From IMG/VR virus record IMGVR_UViG_2693429635_000028: DNA of 11,444 nt; one strand, 5' to 3'. Below are positions 2,145 to 11,444 of this stretch, piece by piece; position 1 is the stretch's first letter; each line of letters opens with the position of its first letter. Origin of the DNA: a virus (lineage: Duplodnaviria > Heunggongvirae > Uroviricota > Caudoviricetes). A program made the translations under genes and the position numbers. A model generated the notes under the pieces. It worked only from the letters and a program-made list of their open reading frames with translations. It made no database searches and was not told the origin of the DNA.

Positions 2145-5100
2145 ATGGGTAAAGGAAGCAGTAAGGGGCATACCCCGCGCGAAGCGAAGGACAACCTGAA
2201 GTCCACGCAGTTGCTGAGTGTGATTGATGCCATCAGTGAAGGGCCGATTGAAGGTCCGGTGGATGGATTAAAAAGCGTGCTGCTGAACAGTACGCCGGTG
2301 CTGGACAGTGATGGGAATACCAACATCGCCGGTGTCACGGTGGTGTTCCGGGCTGGTGAGCAGGAGCAGACTCCGCCGGAGGGATTTGAATCCTCCGGCT
2401 CCGAGACGGTGTTGGGTACGGAAGTGAAATACGACACGCCGATCACCCGCGCCATCACGTCGGCAAACATCGACCGACTGCGCTTTACCTTCGGTGTGCA
2501 GGCACTGGTGGAAACCACCTCAAAGGGGGACCGGAATCCGTCGGAAGTTCGCCTGCTGGTTCAGATACAGCGTAATGGTGGCTGGGTGACGGAAAAAGAC
2601 ATCACCATTAAGGGCAAAACCACCTCGCAGTATCTGGCCTCGGTGGTGGTGGATAACCTGCCGCCGCGCCCGTTTAATATCCGGATGCGCAGAATGACGC
2701 CGGACAGCACCACAGACCAGCTGCAGAACAAAACGCTCTGGTCGTCATACACCGAAATCATCGATGTGAAACAGTGCTACCCGAACACGGCACTGGTCGG
2801 CGTGCAGGTGGACTCGGAACAGTTCGGCAGCCAGCAGGTGAGCCGTAATTATCATCTTCGCGGGCGCATTCTGCAGGTGCCGTCGAACTATAACCCGCAG
2901 ACGCGGCAATACAGCGGTATCTGGGACGGAACGTTTAAGCCAGCATACAGCAACAACATGGCCTGGTGTCTGTGGGATATGCTGACCCATCCGCGCTACG
3001 GCATGGGGAAGCGTCTCGGTGCGGCGGATGTGGACAAATGGGCGCTGTATGTCATCGGCCAGCATTGCGACCAGTCGGTGCCGGATGGCTTTGGTGGCAC
3101 GGAGCCGCGCATCACCTGTAATGCCTACCTGACCACACAGCGCAAGGCGTGGGATGTTCTCAGTGATTTCTGCTCGGCGATGCGCTGTATGCCGGTATGG
3201 AACGGGCAGACGCTGACGTTCGTGCAGGACCGACCGTCGGATAAGGTGTGGACCTATAACCGCAGTAATGTGGTGATGCCGGATGATGGTGCGCCGTTCC
3301 GCTACAGCTTCAGCGCCCTGAAGGACCGCCATAATGCCGTTGAGGTGAACTGGATTGACCCGAATAACGGCTGGGAGACGGCGACAGAGCTTGTGGAGGA
3401 CACGCAGGCCATTGCCCGTTACGGTCGTAACGTCACGAAGATGGATGCTTTTGGCTGTACCAGCCGGGGGCAGGCACACCGCGCCGGGCTGTGGCTGATT
3501 AAAACGGAGCTGCTGGAGACGCAGACCGTGGACTTCAGCGTGGGTGCCGAAGGGCTTCGCCATGTACCGGGCGATGTCATTGAAATCTGCGATGATGACT
3601 ATGCCGGTATCAGCACCGGCGGGCGCGTGCTGGCGGTGAACAGCCAGACCCGGACGCTGACGCTCGACCGTGAAATCACGCTGCCATCTTCCGGTACCAC
3701 GCTGATAAGCCTGGTTGACGGGCAGGGGAGTCCGGTCAGCGTGGAGGTCCAGTCCGTCACCGACGGCGTGAAGGTGAAAGTGAGCCGTGTTCCTGACGGC
3801 GTTGCCGGATACAGCGTATGGGGGCTGAAGTTGCCGACGCTGCGCCAGCGCCTGTTCCGCTGCGTGAGTATCCGTGAGAACGATGACGGCACGTATGCCA
3901 TCACCGCCGTGCAGCATGTACCGGAAAAAGAGGCCATCGTGGATAACGGGGCGCACTTTGACGGCGACCAGAGCGGCACGGTGAATGGTGTCACGCCGCC
4001 AGCGGTGCAGCACCTGACTGCCGAAGTCACCGCAGACAGCGGGGAATATCAGGTGCTGGCGCGCTGGGACACGCCGAAGGTGGTGAAGGGGGTGAGCTTC
4101 CTGCTCCGTCTGACCGTAACAGCGGACGACGGCAGTGAGCGGCTGGTCAGCACGGCCCGGACGACGGAAACCACATACCGCTTCAGGCAACTGGCGCCGG
4201 GGAACTACAGGCTGACAGTCCGGGCGGTAAATGCGTGGGGGCAGCAGGGCGATCCGGCGTCGGTATCGTTCCGGATTGCCGCACCGGCAGCACCGTCGAG
4301 GATTGAGCTGACGCCGGGCTATTTTCAGATAACCGCCACGCCGCATCTTGCCGTTTATGACCCGACGGTACAGTTTGAGTTCTGGTTCTCGGAAAAGCGG
4401 ATTACCGATATCAGGAAGGTTGAAACCACAGCGCGCTATCTTGGTACGGCGCTGTACTGGATAGCCGCCAGTATCAATATCAAACCGGGCCATGATTATT
4501 ATTTTTACGTTCGCAGTGTGAACACCGTTGGCAAATCGGCATTCGTGGAGGCTGTCGGTCAGCCGAGTGATGATGCATCAGGCTATCTGGATTTTTTCAA
4601 AGGCAAGATAGGGAAAACCCATCTGGCTCAGGAGCTGTGGACGCAGATTGATAACGGTCAGCTTGCGCCTGACCTGACTGAAATCAGGACGTCCATAACG
4701 GATGTCAGCAATGAAATAACACAGACCGTCAATAAGAAACTGGAAGACCAGAGTGCAGCGATCCAGCAGATACAGAAGGTTCAGGTTGATACAAATAATA
4801 ACCTGAACAGCATGTGGGCAGTGAAGCTGCAGCAGATGCAGGACGGACGCCTTTATATTGCGGGTATCGGTGCCGGTATTGAGAACACCCCTGACGGCAT
4901 GCAGAGTCAGGTGCTGCTGGCAGCAGACAGGATTGCGATGATTAATCCTGCGAATGGCAACACAAAGCCGATGTTTGTTGGTCAGGGCGATCAGATATTC
5001 ATGAATGAAGTGTTCCTGAAACGCCTGACGGCCCCCACCATTACCAGCGGCGGTAATCCTCCGGCATTTTCCCTGACATCAGACGGGAGACTGACGGCGA

Positions 5101-5642
5101 AAAATGCGGATATCAGTGGCAGTGTGAATGCGAACTCAGGAACGCTCAACAATGTCACGATTAACCAGAACTGTACGATTAAGGGCATGCTGGAGGCGAC
5201 CCAGGTCAGAGGAGATTTCGTTAAAGCTGTATCAAAAGCCTTCCCGAAAAAAGTCGGTACGTGGGGTAACACGGAAACACCAAACGGTACGGTTACAGTC
5301 ACCATCAGCGATGATCATAACTTTGACCGCCAGATTATTATTCCGCCCATTATTTTTAACGGTATAGCGTATGACGATCCGGGGAGCGGAAATAACCCAG
5401 GAGGCACGCGATACACGGGTTATGGTTTTGAAGTTCGCAAAAACGGCGTATTAATCGCATCCAGAGAAACTAAAGGGGCCATTCCCGGTAGTTACAGTGC
5501 AGTTATTGATATGCCGAGTGGCAGGGGAAGCGTCACTCTGGAGTTTAAGATTTTCCAGAAAGGCAATCAGGGGGCAGGCAATATCACCGACTGTACGGTG
5601 ATTGTGACCAAAAAAGCCGCTTCCGGCATCAGTATTCGTTGA
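2145..5642 (+). CDS. J: Host specificity protein J (tail tip central fibre), 1165 aa; N-terminal ~800 aa lambda-like with fibronectin type III repeats, C-terminal receptor-binding region divergent
   Basis: ORF begins [38 protein letters not shown], as lambda gpJ does. FN3-like segment ([26 protein letters not shown]). Good SD (GAGGA) 3 nt upstream. Length is 1165 aa versus 1132 aa for lambda J. Confidence 0.95.
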
Positions 5643-5663
5643 AATATTTATAACCCCAATAAA

Positions 5664-5688
5664 GGGCGTCAGGAATGACGCCTTTTTT
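5664..5688 (+). terminator. Rho-independent terminator between J and lom
   Basis: GC-rich hairpin GGCGTCA-GGAA-TGACGCC (7-bp stem, 4-nt loop, extendable by a G-U pair) immediately followed by TTTTTT (5683-5688). Confidence 0.75.
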
Positions 5689-5712
5689 ATTGCAGAAAAG
5701 CGAGAGGTAATT

Positions 5713-6312
5713 ATGCGTAAAGTTTGTGCAGCCATTTTGTCCGCAGCCATTTGTCTGGCCGTATCCGGTGCGCCTGCATGGGCGTCTGAACATCAGTCCA
5801 CGCTGAGCGCGGGGTATCTTCATGCCTCGACGAACGTCCCCGGCAGTGATGATCTGAACGGGATTAACGTGAAATACCGTTATGAGTTTACGGACACACT
5901 GGGGCTGGTGACGTCATTCAGCTATGCAGGAGACAAGAATCGCCAGCTGACCCGTTACAGCGATACCCGCTGGCATGAAGATTCCGTTCGTAACCGCTGG
6001 TTCAGCGTAATGGCGGGGCCGTCTGTGCGCGTGAATGAATGGTTCAGCGCGTATGCGATGGCGGGTGTAGCTTACAGCCGTGTGTCGACTTTCTCCGGGG
6101 ATTATCTTCGCGTAACTGACAACAAGGGGAAAAAGCACGATGTGCTGACCGGAAGTGATGACGGTCGCCACAGCAACACGTCTCTGGCGTGGGGGGCTGG
6201 CGTGCAGTTTAACCCGACCGAATCCGTGGCCATTGATATTGCTTATGAAGGCTCCGGCAGTGGTGACTGGCGCACTGACGGTTTCATCGTGGGTGTCGGT
6301 TATAAATTCTGA
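5713..6312 (+). CDS. lom: Lom/Ail/PagC/OmpX-family outer-membrane beta-barrel protein (lysogenic-conversion-type moron)
   Basis: 199-aa ORF with an N-terminal signal peptide (MRKVCAAILSAAICLAVSGAPAWA|SE) and a C-terminal ...DIAYEGSGSGDWRTDGFIVGVGYKF ending in an aromatic residue, as in lambda Lom. SD GAGAGG 6 nt upstream. Same position as lambda lom, downstream of J. Confidence 0.9.
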   Translation: MRKVCAAILSAAICLAVSGAPAWASEHQSTLSAGYLHASTNVPGSDDLNGINVKYRYEFTDTLGLVTSFSYAGDKNRQLTRYSDTRWHEDSVRNRWFSVMAGPSVRVNEWFSAYAMAGVAYSRVSTFSGDYLRVTDNKGKKHDVLTGSDDGRHSNTSLAWGAGVQFNPTESVAIDIAYEGSGSGDWRTDGFIVGVGYKF

Positions 6313-6365: not shown

Positions 6366-6376
6366 GTGGGGTGAAT

Positions 6377-9300
6377 ATGGCAGTAAAGATTTCAGGTGTA
6401 CTGAAAGACGGCACAGGAAAACCGGTACAGAACTGCACAATCCAGCTGAAAGCAAAACGTAACAGCACCACGGTGGTGGTGAACACGCTGGCCTCAGAAA
6501 ATCCGGATGAAGCCGGGCGTTACAGCATGGACGTTGAGTACGGGCAGTACAGCGTTATTCTGTTGGTGGAGGGATTCCCGCCGTCACATGCCGGGACCAT
6601 CACCGTGTATGAAGATTCCCGACCCGGTACGCTGAATGATTTTCTCGGTGCCATGACGGAGGATGATGCCCGTCCTGAGGCACTGCGCCGTTTTGAACTG
6701 ATGGTGGAAGAGGTGGCGCGTAACGCGTCCGCGGTGGCACAGAACACGGCAGCCGTGAAGAAGTCAGCCAGCGATGCCAGCACATCAGCCCGTGAGGCGG
6801 CAACCCATGCGACTGATGCTGCAGGCTCAGCACGCGCAGCCAGCACGTCAGCCGGACAGGCCGCGTCGTCGGCTCAGTCAGCATCTTCCAGCGCAGGAAC
6901 GGCATCAACAAAGGCCAGTGAAGCATCGAAAAGTGCTGCTGCTGCAGAGTCCTCAAAAAGCGCGGCAGCTACCAGTGCCGCTGCGGCGAAAACGTCAGAA
7001 ACGAATGCGGCAGCGTCACAACAATCAGCAGCCACTTCTGCATCCGCCGCGACCACGAAGGCGTCAGAAGCAGCCACCTCAGCCCGGGATGCGGCGGCCT
7101 CAAAAGAGGCAGCGAAATCATCAGAAACGAACGCATCATCAAGCGCCAGTAGTGCCGCTTCCTCGGCAACGGCGGCAGCAAATTCTGCGAAGGCGGCCAA
7201 AACGTCTGAGACAAACGCCAGGTCTTCTGAAACGGCAGCGGGACAGAGCGCCTCGGCTGCGGCAGGCTCAAAAACAGCGGCTGCGTCGTCTGCCAGTGCC
7301 GCGTCAACAAGTGCCGGGCAGGCCTCAGCCAGTGCCACCGCCGCCGGAAAATCGGCAGAAAGTGCCGCATCGTCTGCTTCAACAGCCACAACGAAGGCTG
7401 GCGAAGCCACTGAACAGGCCAGCGCAGCAGCGAGGTCTGCTTCCGCAGCGAAGACATCCGAGACGAACGCGAAAGCGTCGGAAACCAGCGCAGAATCCTC
7501 AAAAACGGCTGCCGCATCGTCCGCCAGTTCGGCGGCGTCATCGGCATCATCGGCGTCTGCTTCAAAAGATGAGGCGACCAGACAAGCGTCCGCAGCGAAG
7601 GGCAGCGCCACGACAGCATCCACGAAGGCGACAGAGGCAGCTGGCAGTGCGACGGCGGCAGCACAGAGCAAAAGTACGGCGGAATCCGCGGTAACGCGCG
7701 CCGAGACAGCGGCAAAACGGGCAGAGGATATTGCATCCGCCGTGGCGCTTGAGGATGCAAGTACGACGAAAAAGGGGATAGTACAGCTCAGCAGTGCGAC
7801 CAACAGTACGTCTGAAACGCTGGCGGCAACGCCAAAGGCAGTAAAATCAGCCTATGACAATGCAGAGAAACGTCTGCAGAAAGACCAGAACGGCGCTGAT
7901 ATACCCGATAAGGGACGCTTCCTGAACAACATTAACGCGGTCAGTAAAACAGACTTTGCTGATAAGCGTGGTATGCGTTATGTGCGGGTTAACGCTCCTG
8001 CAGGTGCAATATCTGGAAAATATTACCCTGTTGTTGTTATGCGTTCTGCTGGCTCAGTAAGCGAACTGGCATCAAGGGTCATTATCACCACGGCAACGCG
8101 AACCGCAGGCGATCCGATGAATAACTGCGAGTTTAACGGATTTGTTATGCCTGGTGGCTGGACTGACAGGGGGCGTTATGCTTATGGAATGTTCTGGCAA
8201 TATCAAAACAATGAACGAGCCATCCACTCAATAATGATGAGTAATAAGGGCGATGATTTGCGCTCTGTGTTCTATGTTGATGGCGCTGCTTTCCCTGTTT
8301 TTGCGTTTATCGAAGATGGCCTGTCAATATCCGCACCTGGTGCTGATCTCGTTGTTAATGATACGACCTATAAGTTTGGGGCAACAAATCCGGCGACTGA
8401 ATGTATCGCGGCGGACGTTATCCTTGATTTTAAGAGTGGGCGTGGTTTTTATGAGTCTCATTCGTTAATCGTTAACGATAACTTGTCGTGCAAAAAACTT
8501 TTTGCCACAGACGAAATTGTAGCGCGTGGTGGTAATCAGATTCGAATGATAGGTGGGGAGTATGGGGCATTATGGCGTAATGATGGCGCTAAAACTTACC
8601 TGCTGCTTACCAATCAAGGTGATGTTTATGGTGGCTGGAATACATTAAGACCGTTTGCTATTGATAACGCAACCGGCGAACTGGTTATTGGAACCAAACT
8701 GTCCGCAAGTCTGAACGGTAATGCATTAACAGCAACAAAGCTGCAAACGCCAAGACGGGTTTCTGGTGTTGAGTTTGATGGTTCCAAAGATATTACTTTA
8801 ACCGCCGCGCATGTGGCTGCTTTTGCCAGAAGGGCAACGGATACATATGCCGATGCGGATGGTGGCGTTCCCTGGAATGCCGAATCAGGCGCTTACAATG
8901 TCACCCGCTCTGGCGACAGCTATATTCTGGTTAACTTCTATACCGGAGTCGGAAGTTGCCGGACCCTGCAGATGAAGGCGCATTACAGAAATGGTGGTCT
9001 GTTCTACCGTTCTTCAAGAGATGGCTATGGTTTTGAGGAAGACTGGGCAGAAGTTTATACCTCGAAAAATCTTCCACCAGAAAGCTACCCAGTCGGCGCA
9101 CCAATCCCGTGGCCATCAGATACCGTTCCGTCTGGTTATGCCCTGATGCAGGGGCAGACTTTTGACAAATCTGCCTACCCGAAACTTGCTGCCGCTTATC
9201 CGTCAGGCGTGATCCCTGATTTGCGTGGCTGGACGATTAAGGGCAAGCCCGCCAGTGGTCGTGCCGTATTGTCTCAGGAACAGGATGGCATTAAATCGCA

Positions 9301-9775
9301 TACCCACAGCGCCAGCGCATCCAGTACGGATTTGGGGACGAAAACCACATCGTCGTTTGATTACGGCACTAAATCCACGAATAACACTGGTGCGCATACC
9401 CATAGTTTAAGTGGCAGCACGAATGCAGCTGGTAATCACAGCCATAGAGATGGCCGTCGATTTAACCCCAGTGTTTTTAAAGATACTTATCAATATGGTT
9501 ATACAAGCTCAGGTCAAAATACCTGGGGTGTACAAGGCTCAGTAGGTATGTCTACGGGGTGGTTAGCGAATACCAGTACAGATGGTAATCATAGCCATTC
9601 ACTGTCCGGCACAGCAGCATCTGCAGGTGCACACGCGCATACTGTCGGTATTGGTGCTCATACGCACTCCGTTGCGATTGGTTCACATGGACACACCATC
9701 ACCGTTAACGCTGCTGGTAACGCGGAAAACACCGTCAAAAACATCGCATTTAACTATATTGTGAGGCTTGCATAA
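6377..9775 (+). CDS. stf: Side tail fibre protein Stf, long intact form (~1132 aa from the ATG at 6377; the ORF track extends to the GTG at 6371)
   Basis: N-terminus [26 protein letters not shown]... matches lambda Stf (orf-401) as I recall it. Long Ala/Ser-rich repeat region. C-terminus with repeated HxH motifs and ...[26 protein letters not shown], as at the lambda Stf / T4 gp37-type fibre tip. Stop TAA overlaps the tfa ATG (ATAATG). Confidence 0.9.
6730..7730 (+). repeat. Low-complexity Ala/Ser/Thr-rich coding repeat inside stf, with a recurring A-A-K-T/S-S-E-T-N-A motif (4 copies)
   Basis: Motif copies at about 6988-7014, 7116-7139, 7200-7223 and 7452-7475 (AAKTSETNA / AAKSSETNA). The composition generates long spurious ORFs in other frames and on the opposite strand. 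Confidence 0.8.
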
Positions 9776-10359
9776 TGGCATTCAGAATGAGTGAACAAGC
9801 ACGGACCATAAAAATTTATAATCTGCTGGCCGGAACTAATGAATTTATTGGTGAAGGTGATGCATATATTCCGCCTCATACAGGTCTGCCAGCAAACAGT
9901 ACCGATATTGCACCACCAGATATTCCTGCTGGCTTTGTGGCTGTTTTCAACAGTGATGAGGCATCGTGGCATCTCGTTGAAGACCATCGGGGTAAAACGG
10001 TTTATGACGTAGCGTCAGGGGACGAGTTATTTATTTCTGAACTCGGTCCGTTACCGGAAAATGTTACCTGGTTATCGCCGGAAGGGGAGTTTCAGAAGTG
10101 GAACGGCACAGCCTGGGTGAAAGATGCAGAAGCAGAAAAACTGTTCCGGATCCGAGAGGCGGAAGAAATAAAAAACAGCCTGATGCAGGTAGCCAGTGAG
10201 CATATTGCGCCACTTCAGGATGCTGTAGATCTGGAAATCGCAACGGAGGAAGAAACCTCATTGCTGGAAGCCTGGAAAAAGTATCGGGTGTTGCTGAACC
10301 GTGTTGATACATCAACTGCACCTGATATTGAGTGGCCTACGAACCCTGTCAGGGAGTAA
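9775..10359 (+). CDS. tfa: Tail fibre assembly protein Tfa (chaperone for Stf)
   Basis: 194-aa ORF, the same length as lambda Tfa and closely matching it as recalled ([78 protein letters not shown]...). Start is translationally coupled to the stf stop. Confidence 0.95.
10195..10314 (+). repeat. Direct repeat copy 1 (tfa 3' coding segment), about 89% identical to 11244-11363
   Basis: Manual alignment: 13 mismatches over 120 nt between 10195-10314 and 11244-11363, same orientation. Confidence 0.85.
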
Positions 10360-10413: not shown

Positions 10414-11082
10414 CTATTTTTTCCCTGAAGCGGAAAACATTACTACAGTACCTTGAACCTTGGTTTTAACATTCTCGAAATGCTCTGAGAGTATATGTGT
10501 TAAGCCTTCTTCGGAATCTTTTGTGTTTGAAAAGATGCCTTTCTGATTGTAAATGCGCATCAGTTTTTGACCGAAGCTATTGTGCACAACTCCATCGCCA
10601 AGAATTGTGGCTCCGTATAGAGTTCCATCGTCAGTTAAGGCCTGCGCCGCATTGCGTATTACACAGCTTTTTGTAGATATATTTCCAGGCAGGCAGTGAA
10701 GAAGGTAAAACATGGAAATGGAATCAAATTGACCATGTAACGCCGCGGGATAAGGTTCAAAAACATCATGGCTAATTTTATGTTTAATTTTTGATTCCCC
10801 AGCCCTTGTAGATGCCGCGTTCAGGCTAGCTTCGTTCAAATCCATTAAAGATATCAGACTACTCTCAGGTACGTGAGTAAGGTAAAACCCAGTTCCAACA
10901 CCAATATCCAGATGGTTGTTACCTAAATGTTCCAGAAAGTGTGGAAGAAGGTGTTCCTTTGTAGGACATCCCCATGCAAGCCGATTTGATACTCCCAAAA
11001 CCCACCAGTCATAAAGCTTTAGGGTAAGTGGTGTGTAAATTTTAGCCCCATCATCTGTGTTTTTTTTCATTAATTTCACCAT
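10414..11082 (-). CDS. Putative class I SAM-dependent methyltransferase encoded by a low-GC moron (222 aa; the true start may be the internal ATG at 11070, which has a GGTGA SD)
   Basis: Motif I-like HLDIGVGTGFY followed about 20 aa later by an acidic residue (LISLMDLNEAS), consistent with a Rossmann-fold SAM-binding site. Markedly more AT-rich than the flanking tail genes. Opposite strand to the tail operon. By recollection only (unverified), similar cassettes such as ybcY in E. coli DLP12 sit between tfa copies. Confidence 0.6.
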   Translation of the reverse strand: MVKLMKKNTDDGAKIYTPLTLKLYDWWVLGVSNRLAWGCPTKEHLLPHFLEHLGNNHLDIGVGTGFYLTHVPESSLISLMDLNEASLNAASTRAGESKIKHKISHDVFEPYPAALHGQFDSISMFYLLHCLPGNISTKSCVIRNAAQALTDDGTLYGATILGDGVVHNSFGQKLMRIYNQKGIFSNTKDSEEGLTHILSEHFENVKTKVQGTVVMFSASGKK

Positions 11083-11138: not shown

Positions 11139-11444
11139 ATGCTGCCGCAGCATAGCGATATTGAAATAGCCTGGTATGCTTCGATACAACAGGAGCCGAA
11201 TGGCTGGAAGACCGTCACCACACAGTTCTACATCCAGGAATTCAGTGAGTATATTGCGCCACTGCAGGATGCTGTAGATCTGGAAATCGCAACGGAGGAA
11301 GAAAGATCGTTGCTGGAGGCATGGAATAAATATCGGGTATTGTTGAATCGAGTTGATACATCAGTAGCTCTGGGTATGAAGCTGTTTGTAACTCATGTTA
11401 CAGTAACAGTCATTACTATCTCGAAGGTGCAAAATGTATATTGA
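11139..11444 (+). CDS. Truncated/remnant tail fibre assembly (Tfa-like) protein, 101 aa, probably a relic of a second tfa copy
   Basis: The internal segment [39 protein letters not shown] is near-identical to Tfa residues encoded at 10195-10314. N- and C-terminal flanks are unrelated to Tfa. SD-like AAGGGG upstream of the ATG at 11139. The stop coincides with the window end. Confidence 0.55.
11244..11363 (+). repeat. Direct repeat copy 2 (inside the tfa-like remnant), about 89% identical to 10195-10314
   Basis: Same alignment as copy 1. Similarity ends abruptly after ...GTTGATACATCA in both copies. Confidence 0.85.

Follow-up and report, generated by a model that had tools for sequence, protein, structure and literature searches.

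The 11,444 nucleotides of the window analysed here come from a lambdoid E. coli prophage and make up its distal tail module. Its genes follow the order L-K-I-J-lom-stf-tfa, which is the same as in the lambda annotation, and Pfam matches were obtained for L, I, Lom, the N-terminus of Stf, and Tfa. The list of open reading frames (ORFs) places L at 141-839, K between L and I, and I at 1413-2084, followed beyond J by lom (5713-6312), stf (6371-9775, plus strand, 1134 aa) and tfa (9775-10359). A class I SAM-dependent methyltransferase is encoded on the minus strand (10414-11082), and a second, partial tfa (Caudo_TAP; 11139-11444, plus strand) runs off the window.

Gene J itself occupies positions 2145-5642 of the plus strand and encodes the tail tip attachment or host specificity protein, which forms the central tail fibre. 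According to the ORF list and the translation, its reading frame is intact and consists of 1165 codons plus a stop. The domain architecture was read directly from a Pfam profile search, in which six domains scored above the gathering threshold in the order FNIII-A_GpJ, Phage-tail_3, Ig_J, Ig_J_second, Phage_Tail_Tip (aa 872-1000) and Ig_GpJ_C (aa 1029-1164, nt 5229-5636). Both this domain series and the gene neighbourhood place J among the lambda-type tip attachment proteins.

A terminator-like hairpin, GGCGTCAGGAATGACGCC, followed by T6, was read from the sequence at 5665-5690 on the plus strand, 23 nt past the J stop codon. The terminator scan also flagged its stem on the minus strand, and the element is terminator-like on both strands; phage 434 carries an annotated terminator at the equivalent place. 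Within J, the Rfam scan found no family, and the promoter and terminator scans returned matches at chance level. No tandem repeats were found in the 11.4-kb window. Small ORFs on either strand overlap 4991-5750, within a strongly conserved coding frame.

We also observed several features downstream. Stf is composed of phage_tail_N, a low-complexity shaft of ~380 aa rich in Ala, Ser and Thr, Gp34_trimer, Collar, and C-terminal GxHxH His-box repeats, and the low-complexity shaft accounts for a GC content of ~0.61 and an AT skew of +0.34 to +0.44 at 6800-7800. A full-length match to the Rfam family IS009 (RF02111; 227.8 bits) lies at 10118-10316 on the plus strand, within the tfa coding sequence. 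The methyltransferase, placed between the duplicated pieces of tfa, looks like a moron-like insertion.

Segments of J compared with lambda and phage 434

With 1165 aa, J exceeds its lambda counterpart (1132 aa) by 33 residues, as the initial annotation of this DNA had stated, and the overall identity of the two proteins is 82% by BLASTP. To map the mosaic, we aligned the DNA of the window with that of both lambda and phage 434 in a three-way comparison. The body of J (aa 1-804; 2145-4556, plus strand), comprising the hub domains and two FNIII/Ig domains, is lambda-like, with 782 of 804 residues identical to lambda J (97.3%); the annotation had been right to describe the first ~800 residues as close to lambda gpJ. 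Up to ~4556 the window, lambda and 434 are alike at the DNA level. This body is followed by a variant stalk module (aa 805-948; 4557-4988, plus strand), which includes the alpha-helical shaft and the upper beta-prism fibre and is divergent from both phages. Over the stalk, 62 of 116 aligned residues are identical to lambda (62-63 of 116 across the comparisons with lambda and 434), with a 28-aa insertion, whereas lambda and 434 are identical to each other at 115 of 116 positions (805-920). The nucleotide identity of the window to lambda and 434 ranges from 46 to 63% in 60-nt windows across 4605-4964.

Beyond the stalk lies a conserved joint (aa 949-985; 4989-5099, plus strand) that is shared by the window, lambda and 434, with 33 of 37 residues identical to lambda and 32 of 37 to 434. 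In this joint, codon positions 1 and 2 are 0.95-0.96 identical, while position 3 is only 0.70-0.73 identical, and the last mismatch between the window and 434 falls at nt 5099. The joint is probably a recombination linker, judging from the sequence comparison. The remainder of J (aa 986-1165; 5100-5642, plus strand) comprises the distal fibre and the receptor-binding domain (RBD) and is of the 434 type. Relative to phage 434, 175 of 180 residues (97.2%) and 531 of 543 nucleotides are identical with no gaps, whereas against lambda J only 81 of 186 alignment columns are identical (44%) and several indels are required.

Divergence from lambda starts near nt 4557-4561, a few codons before the DFFKGKI motif from about which the annotation had dated it; its coordinate of 4590 corresponds to codon 816, which encodes the D of that motif. 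The three conserved blocks that it had picked out, including MWAVK, are present in the alignment, the last two with one substitution each relative to lambda. Pairwise alignment with lambda J, which had been proposed as a check, likewise confirmed that the C-terminal part is not essentially identical to that of lambda. The proposal that 4590-5642 forms one receptor-binding module was upheld for the tip, which has been swapped, but not for the remainder, since the stalk variant, the joint and the RBD are separate parts. The additional length had similarly been assigned to the receptor-binding module; of the 33 extra residues, 28 belong to the stalk and five to the tip.

The borders near 4557 and 5100 are sharp in comparisons with both phages. 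Third-codon-position identity to lambda was 0.91 in 3645-4556, 0.49 in 4557-4988, 0.70 in 4989-5099 and 0.42 in 5100-5642, and the corresponding values against 434 were 0.90, 0.49, 0.73 and 0.96. Such step changes at the module borders indicate the exchange of long-diverged alleles rather than fast local evolution, and the sequence thus points to recombination behind the divergence of J. The mosaic structure and the identity to 434 are observed directly in these alignments.

The initial annotation had also noted that the 3' part of J is AT-richer. The difference is real, with a GC content of 0.593 in 2145-4589 versus 0.493 in 4590-5642 (two-proportion z = 5.5), but the fall starts upstream of the divergence and is partly shared by lambda and 434. 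It begins near 4365, ~200 nt ahead of the divergence, where the window is still 92-100% identical to lambda. In 4365-4560, where the second Ig/FNIII domain ends, GC is 0.45-0.52 in the window, lambda and 434 alike, and because this low-GC tract is common to all three it characterises the 3' region of J rather than marking a swap. The GC content of lambda J also falls, from 0.584 to 0.538, although less deeply than in the window, and GC3 of the 3' part is 0.55 in the window versus 0.64 in lambda. The window-specific part of the fall is its extra depth only.

The stalk variant, shaft length and structural model

Past its two FNIII domains, lambda gpJ consists of an alpha-helical shaft, a beta-sheet prism and an Ig-like RBD whose four bottom loops enter the porin (PMC11101478). 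The shaft covers residues 809-861, of which the upper helix spans 809-840 and the lower part (841-861) refolds to beta-strands on LamB binding (PMC11101478). The window J has the same domain order as lambda gpJ (NP_040600; PDB 8iyk, 8xck, 8xcj), namely hub, two FNIII domains, helical shaft, beta-prism and Ig-like RBD. Its helical shaft is, however, lengthened to about aa 809-889 (nt 4569-4811) and is 28 aa longer than that of lambda. Relative to lambda and 434, the stalk carries one insertion of 63 nt (4649-4711) and another of 21 nt (4747-4767), together 84 nt or 28 aa. In lambda numbering, both map between residues ~835 and ~845, where the upper helix meets the lower part of the shaft. Across the insert, hydrophobic residues are spaced 4-3-4-3-4-4-4, which fits an amphipathic helix, although the shuffle test was marginal, with 101 of 2000 shuffles reaching the observed score.

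An AF2 monomer model of J, used for secondary structure and the RBD fold only, had a mean pLDDT of 56, a low confidence that is expected for a single chain of a trimeric fibre. Helices were predicted at 811-822, 826-836 and 841-887 (pLDDT 50-71), the tip was modelled as a beta-sandwich (pLDDT 64-88), and the beta-prism was of low confidence. The best structural matches of the model were the gpJ fibres 9wca (A8 gpJ, closed), 8xcj (lambda gpJ with LamB), 8xck (lambda gpJ without LamB) and 9wcb (A8 gpJ with OmpC), and the sequence search of solved structures agreed. The structure prediction that had been suggested for the C-terminal part is thus in keeping with a gpJ-type tip. The same sequence search found no phage 434 J structure among the solved structures.

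By analogy with the lambda and A8 gpJ structures, the window J would be a homotrimer composed of hub, helical shaft, beta-prism and RBD. Residues 1-804, the lambda-type hub and FNIII domains, would build the tail tip. Within residues 805-948, the 28 extra, predicted helical residues would sit at the junction of the shaft helices that unlatch on receptor binding in lambda. The trimeric tip would then insert its bottom loops into a trimeric porin, predicted to be OmpC, and spreading of the RBD would twist the beta-prism and flip the shaft, with opening of the tail tip and DNA ejection to follow.

Shaft length falls into classes of 54 aa (lambda and 434), 82 aa (the window and phi330) and 132-155 aa (some prophages). 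As phi330 is both long-shafted and OmpC-dependent, long shafts do function in infectious phages. Among prophage J proteins, one (P0060) has ~73 extra shaft residues arranged as repeated helical units, seen in comparison with window aa 836-870, and another (P0062) has its shaft plus upper-prism segment duplicated internally. Any effect of the longer shaft in the window J is inferred. It is possible, though doubtful, that the polymorphism in shaft length is not neutral but adaptive, acting as a setting that can be exchanged separately. If so, the length of the shaft could adjust the distance that the tip bridges across O-antigen or capsule towards the porin, or alternatively the ease with which the tail unlatches on receptor binding. 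We found no discussion of discrete shaft length variation and its re-assortment with tips in the literature searched.

The tip, its predicted receptor and its relatives

Near-identity and equal length (5 aa longer than the lambda tip) assign the tip of the window J to the 434 type (h434), and the window and 434 tips are equally distant from the lambda tip. The tip does not belong with the LamB-binding RBD of lambda, from which it differs at most alignment columns and at third codon positions (identity 0.42). It also falls outside the A8/phi330 type (9wcb), which has ~40% identity in the RBD and 47% in the Foldseek alignment and has only the fold family in common.

Phage 434 uses OmpC, and lambda carrying the J of 434 switches from LamB to OmpC (PMC11101478, PMC3509688, both citing the original genetics). 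In addition, the record of a sequenced lambda h434 hybrid has the same tip as the window (PMC9119081). Since the window tip is 97% identical to that of a phage that uses OmpC, OmpC is the predicted receptor, and the window J is predicted to be an OmpC user rather than a LamB user like lambda. The suggestion in the initial annotation of a swapped host-range cassette with a receptor other than LamB is therefore well matched by a tip that is 97.2% identical to 434 and ~44% identical to lambda, although the receptor itself is a prediction from sequence. No receptor data for the window J allele were found in the literature searched, including for mEp332, the PhiR phages and phiSTEC1575.

Based on these comparisons, phage 434 J (OL657226, 1137 aa; the h434 host-range allele) is the closest known relative of the distal part, with five substitutions in 180 aa and the same predicted receptor, but it carries the short lambda-type shaft and upper fibre, from which the window allele is divergent and 28 aa longer. 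Lambda gpJ shares the body, domain order, gene neighbourhood and joint, and differs in its RBD, its receptor LamB, its shorter shaft and its higher GC3. The A8 gpJ chimera and the phi330 tip (9wca, 9wcb) gave the top sequence and structure matches and share the fold family of the window tip. Their receptor is OmpC by experiment (PMC11338833, PMC12502783), but with an RBD about 40-47% identical to that of the window they represent a different tip type. Phi330 has an 82-aa shaft like the window, but this is a second long-stalk allele, ~60% identical, joined to an A8-type tip. Phi330 depends on OmpC and is closest to WGPS6; we considered it as a carrier of the window tip and rejected it, as direct comparison showed only the long shaft to be in common. 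Phage 21 was likewise considered as a native OmpC user and dropped, as its native receptor is LamB according to the published account.

The same combination of stalk and tip as in the window was found in mEp332, PhiR42_1, PhiR34_1, Kati, ev243 and phiSTEC1575-Stx2k, which show 99.2-99.3% nucleotide identity over 4300-5642, while the adjoining stf/tfa cargo varies between the records. The module of the window is present in plaque-forming phages, and the records of mEp332 and PhiR34_1 give K-12 MG1655 as host. In a set of representative homologues, four different stalks are found with the 434-type tip (the lambda-like short stalk of 54 aa, the 82-aa stalk of the window, a second 82-aa stalk that is ~60% identical, and a 155-aa stalk). 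The window-type stalk, in turn, is combined with four kinds of tip, whose mutual identity is 35-56%. For example, mEp460 and 434 combine the short stalk with the 434-type tip, and PhiR47_2 and several 'Lambda_ev' phages combine the long stalk with another tip. The stalk, joint and RBD parts assort independently among these relatives.

The wide distribution of this J was observed directly in public genomes. Of 5426 complete E. coli genomes, 1164 contain the 3' kilobase of J at a query coverage of at least 80%, and 516 records reach an identity of at least 99%. One protein cluster formed at 98% identity comprises 2965 members. Matches of ~98% to the whole 11.4-kb window occur in more than 1000 genomes. 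In the best of the genome matches, the 11.4 kb of the window correspond to ~13.2 kb, which indicates an indel of ~1.8 kb somewhere.

Alternative readings and significance

Receptor-binding proteins are under strong diversifying selection, and small nonsynonymous clusters do occur in J: nine of the 12 nucleotide differences from the 434 tip cluster at 5516-5579. It might therefore be argued that lambda J has evolved rapidly in place, with no exchange of modules. This reading is hardly credible, as third-position identity to lambda drops to 0.42-0.49 precisely in the segments that diverge, and the value against 434 climbs back to 0.96 in the tip. Such identities, which are not uniform along J, effectively refute it, and the segments of J are in addition found near-unchanged in other genetic backgrounds. 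A further reading would make J part of a decayed prophage, its odd C-terminus being a non-functional remnant, and many E. coli prophage J entries in databases are indeed fragments or partial proteins. We consider this very unlikely, given that the 1165-codon frame is intact with every J domain present, the flanking L, K, I, lom, stf and tfa are intact, and the 3' part of J is almost identical in isolated phages.

Another reading concerns the five differences within the tip (window to 434: N1047D, R1127G, I1136V, Q1138H and G1143R), which might redirect a 434-like tip to another porin such as OmpF, LamB or other, or limit it to certain OmpC alleles. All five coincide with variable sites among 21 434-type tips, which lie around 1031-1037, 1047, 1077-1078, 1125-1129 and 1135-1143, in loops or at strand ends predicted by the AF2 model. 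Natural gpJ tips, those of A8 and 1A2, discriminate between OmpC variants (PMC11338833), and because of this the five differences could tune the recognition of OmpC alleles. One to four substitutions can alter porin use in lambda and phi21, and a single J mutation lets phi21 use OmpC (PMC11336670). Nevertheless, the tip as a whole is nearly identical to that of 434, and mEp332, which matches the window J over the final 150 aa without a difference, has K-12 MG1655 as its recorded host. Furthermore, the cluster representatives P0069 and P0095 share the residue of the window at all five sites, and other 434-type tips mix window and 434 states, which suggests allelic variation inside one specificity class. 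A redirected or restricted porin use thus appears unlikely. We consider it very likely that J is a three-part recombinant, made up of a lambda-type body, a divergent allele of the shaft and upper prism and a 434-type tip, and that it is a predicted user of OmpC.

In conclusion, this J is an ordinary, widespread lambdoid mosaic of a kind already known, with a lambda-type body, a long-shaft stalk allele and an h434 (OmpC-type) tip, probably put together by recombination within conserved joints. Such structure is textbook lambdoid mosaicism, and public data contain many examples of it. The host-range allele h434 is a classical marker, roughly one in five complete E. coli genomes carries the module of the window, and no new biology is involved; the modular length variation of the helical shaft is one point of some remaining value. 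The analysis enables a confident annotation, namely that the prophage is predicted to adsorb via OmpC and not LamB. This assignment would be useful when choosing J tips for engineered lambda particles, and it bears on the host range, the superinfection patterns and the spread of lambdoid prophages, including those of the Stx type.
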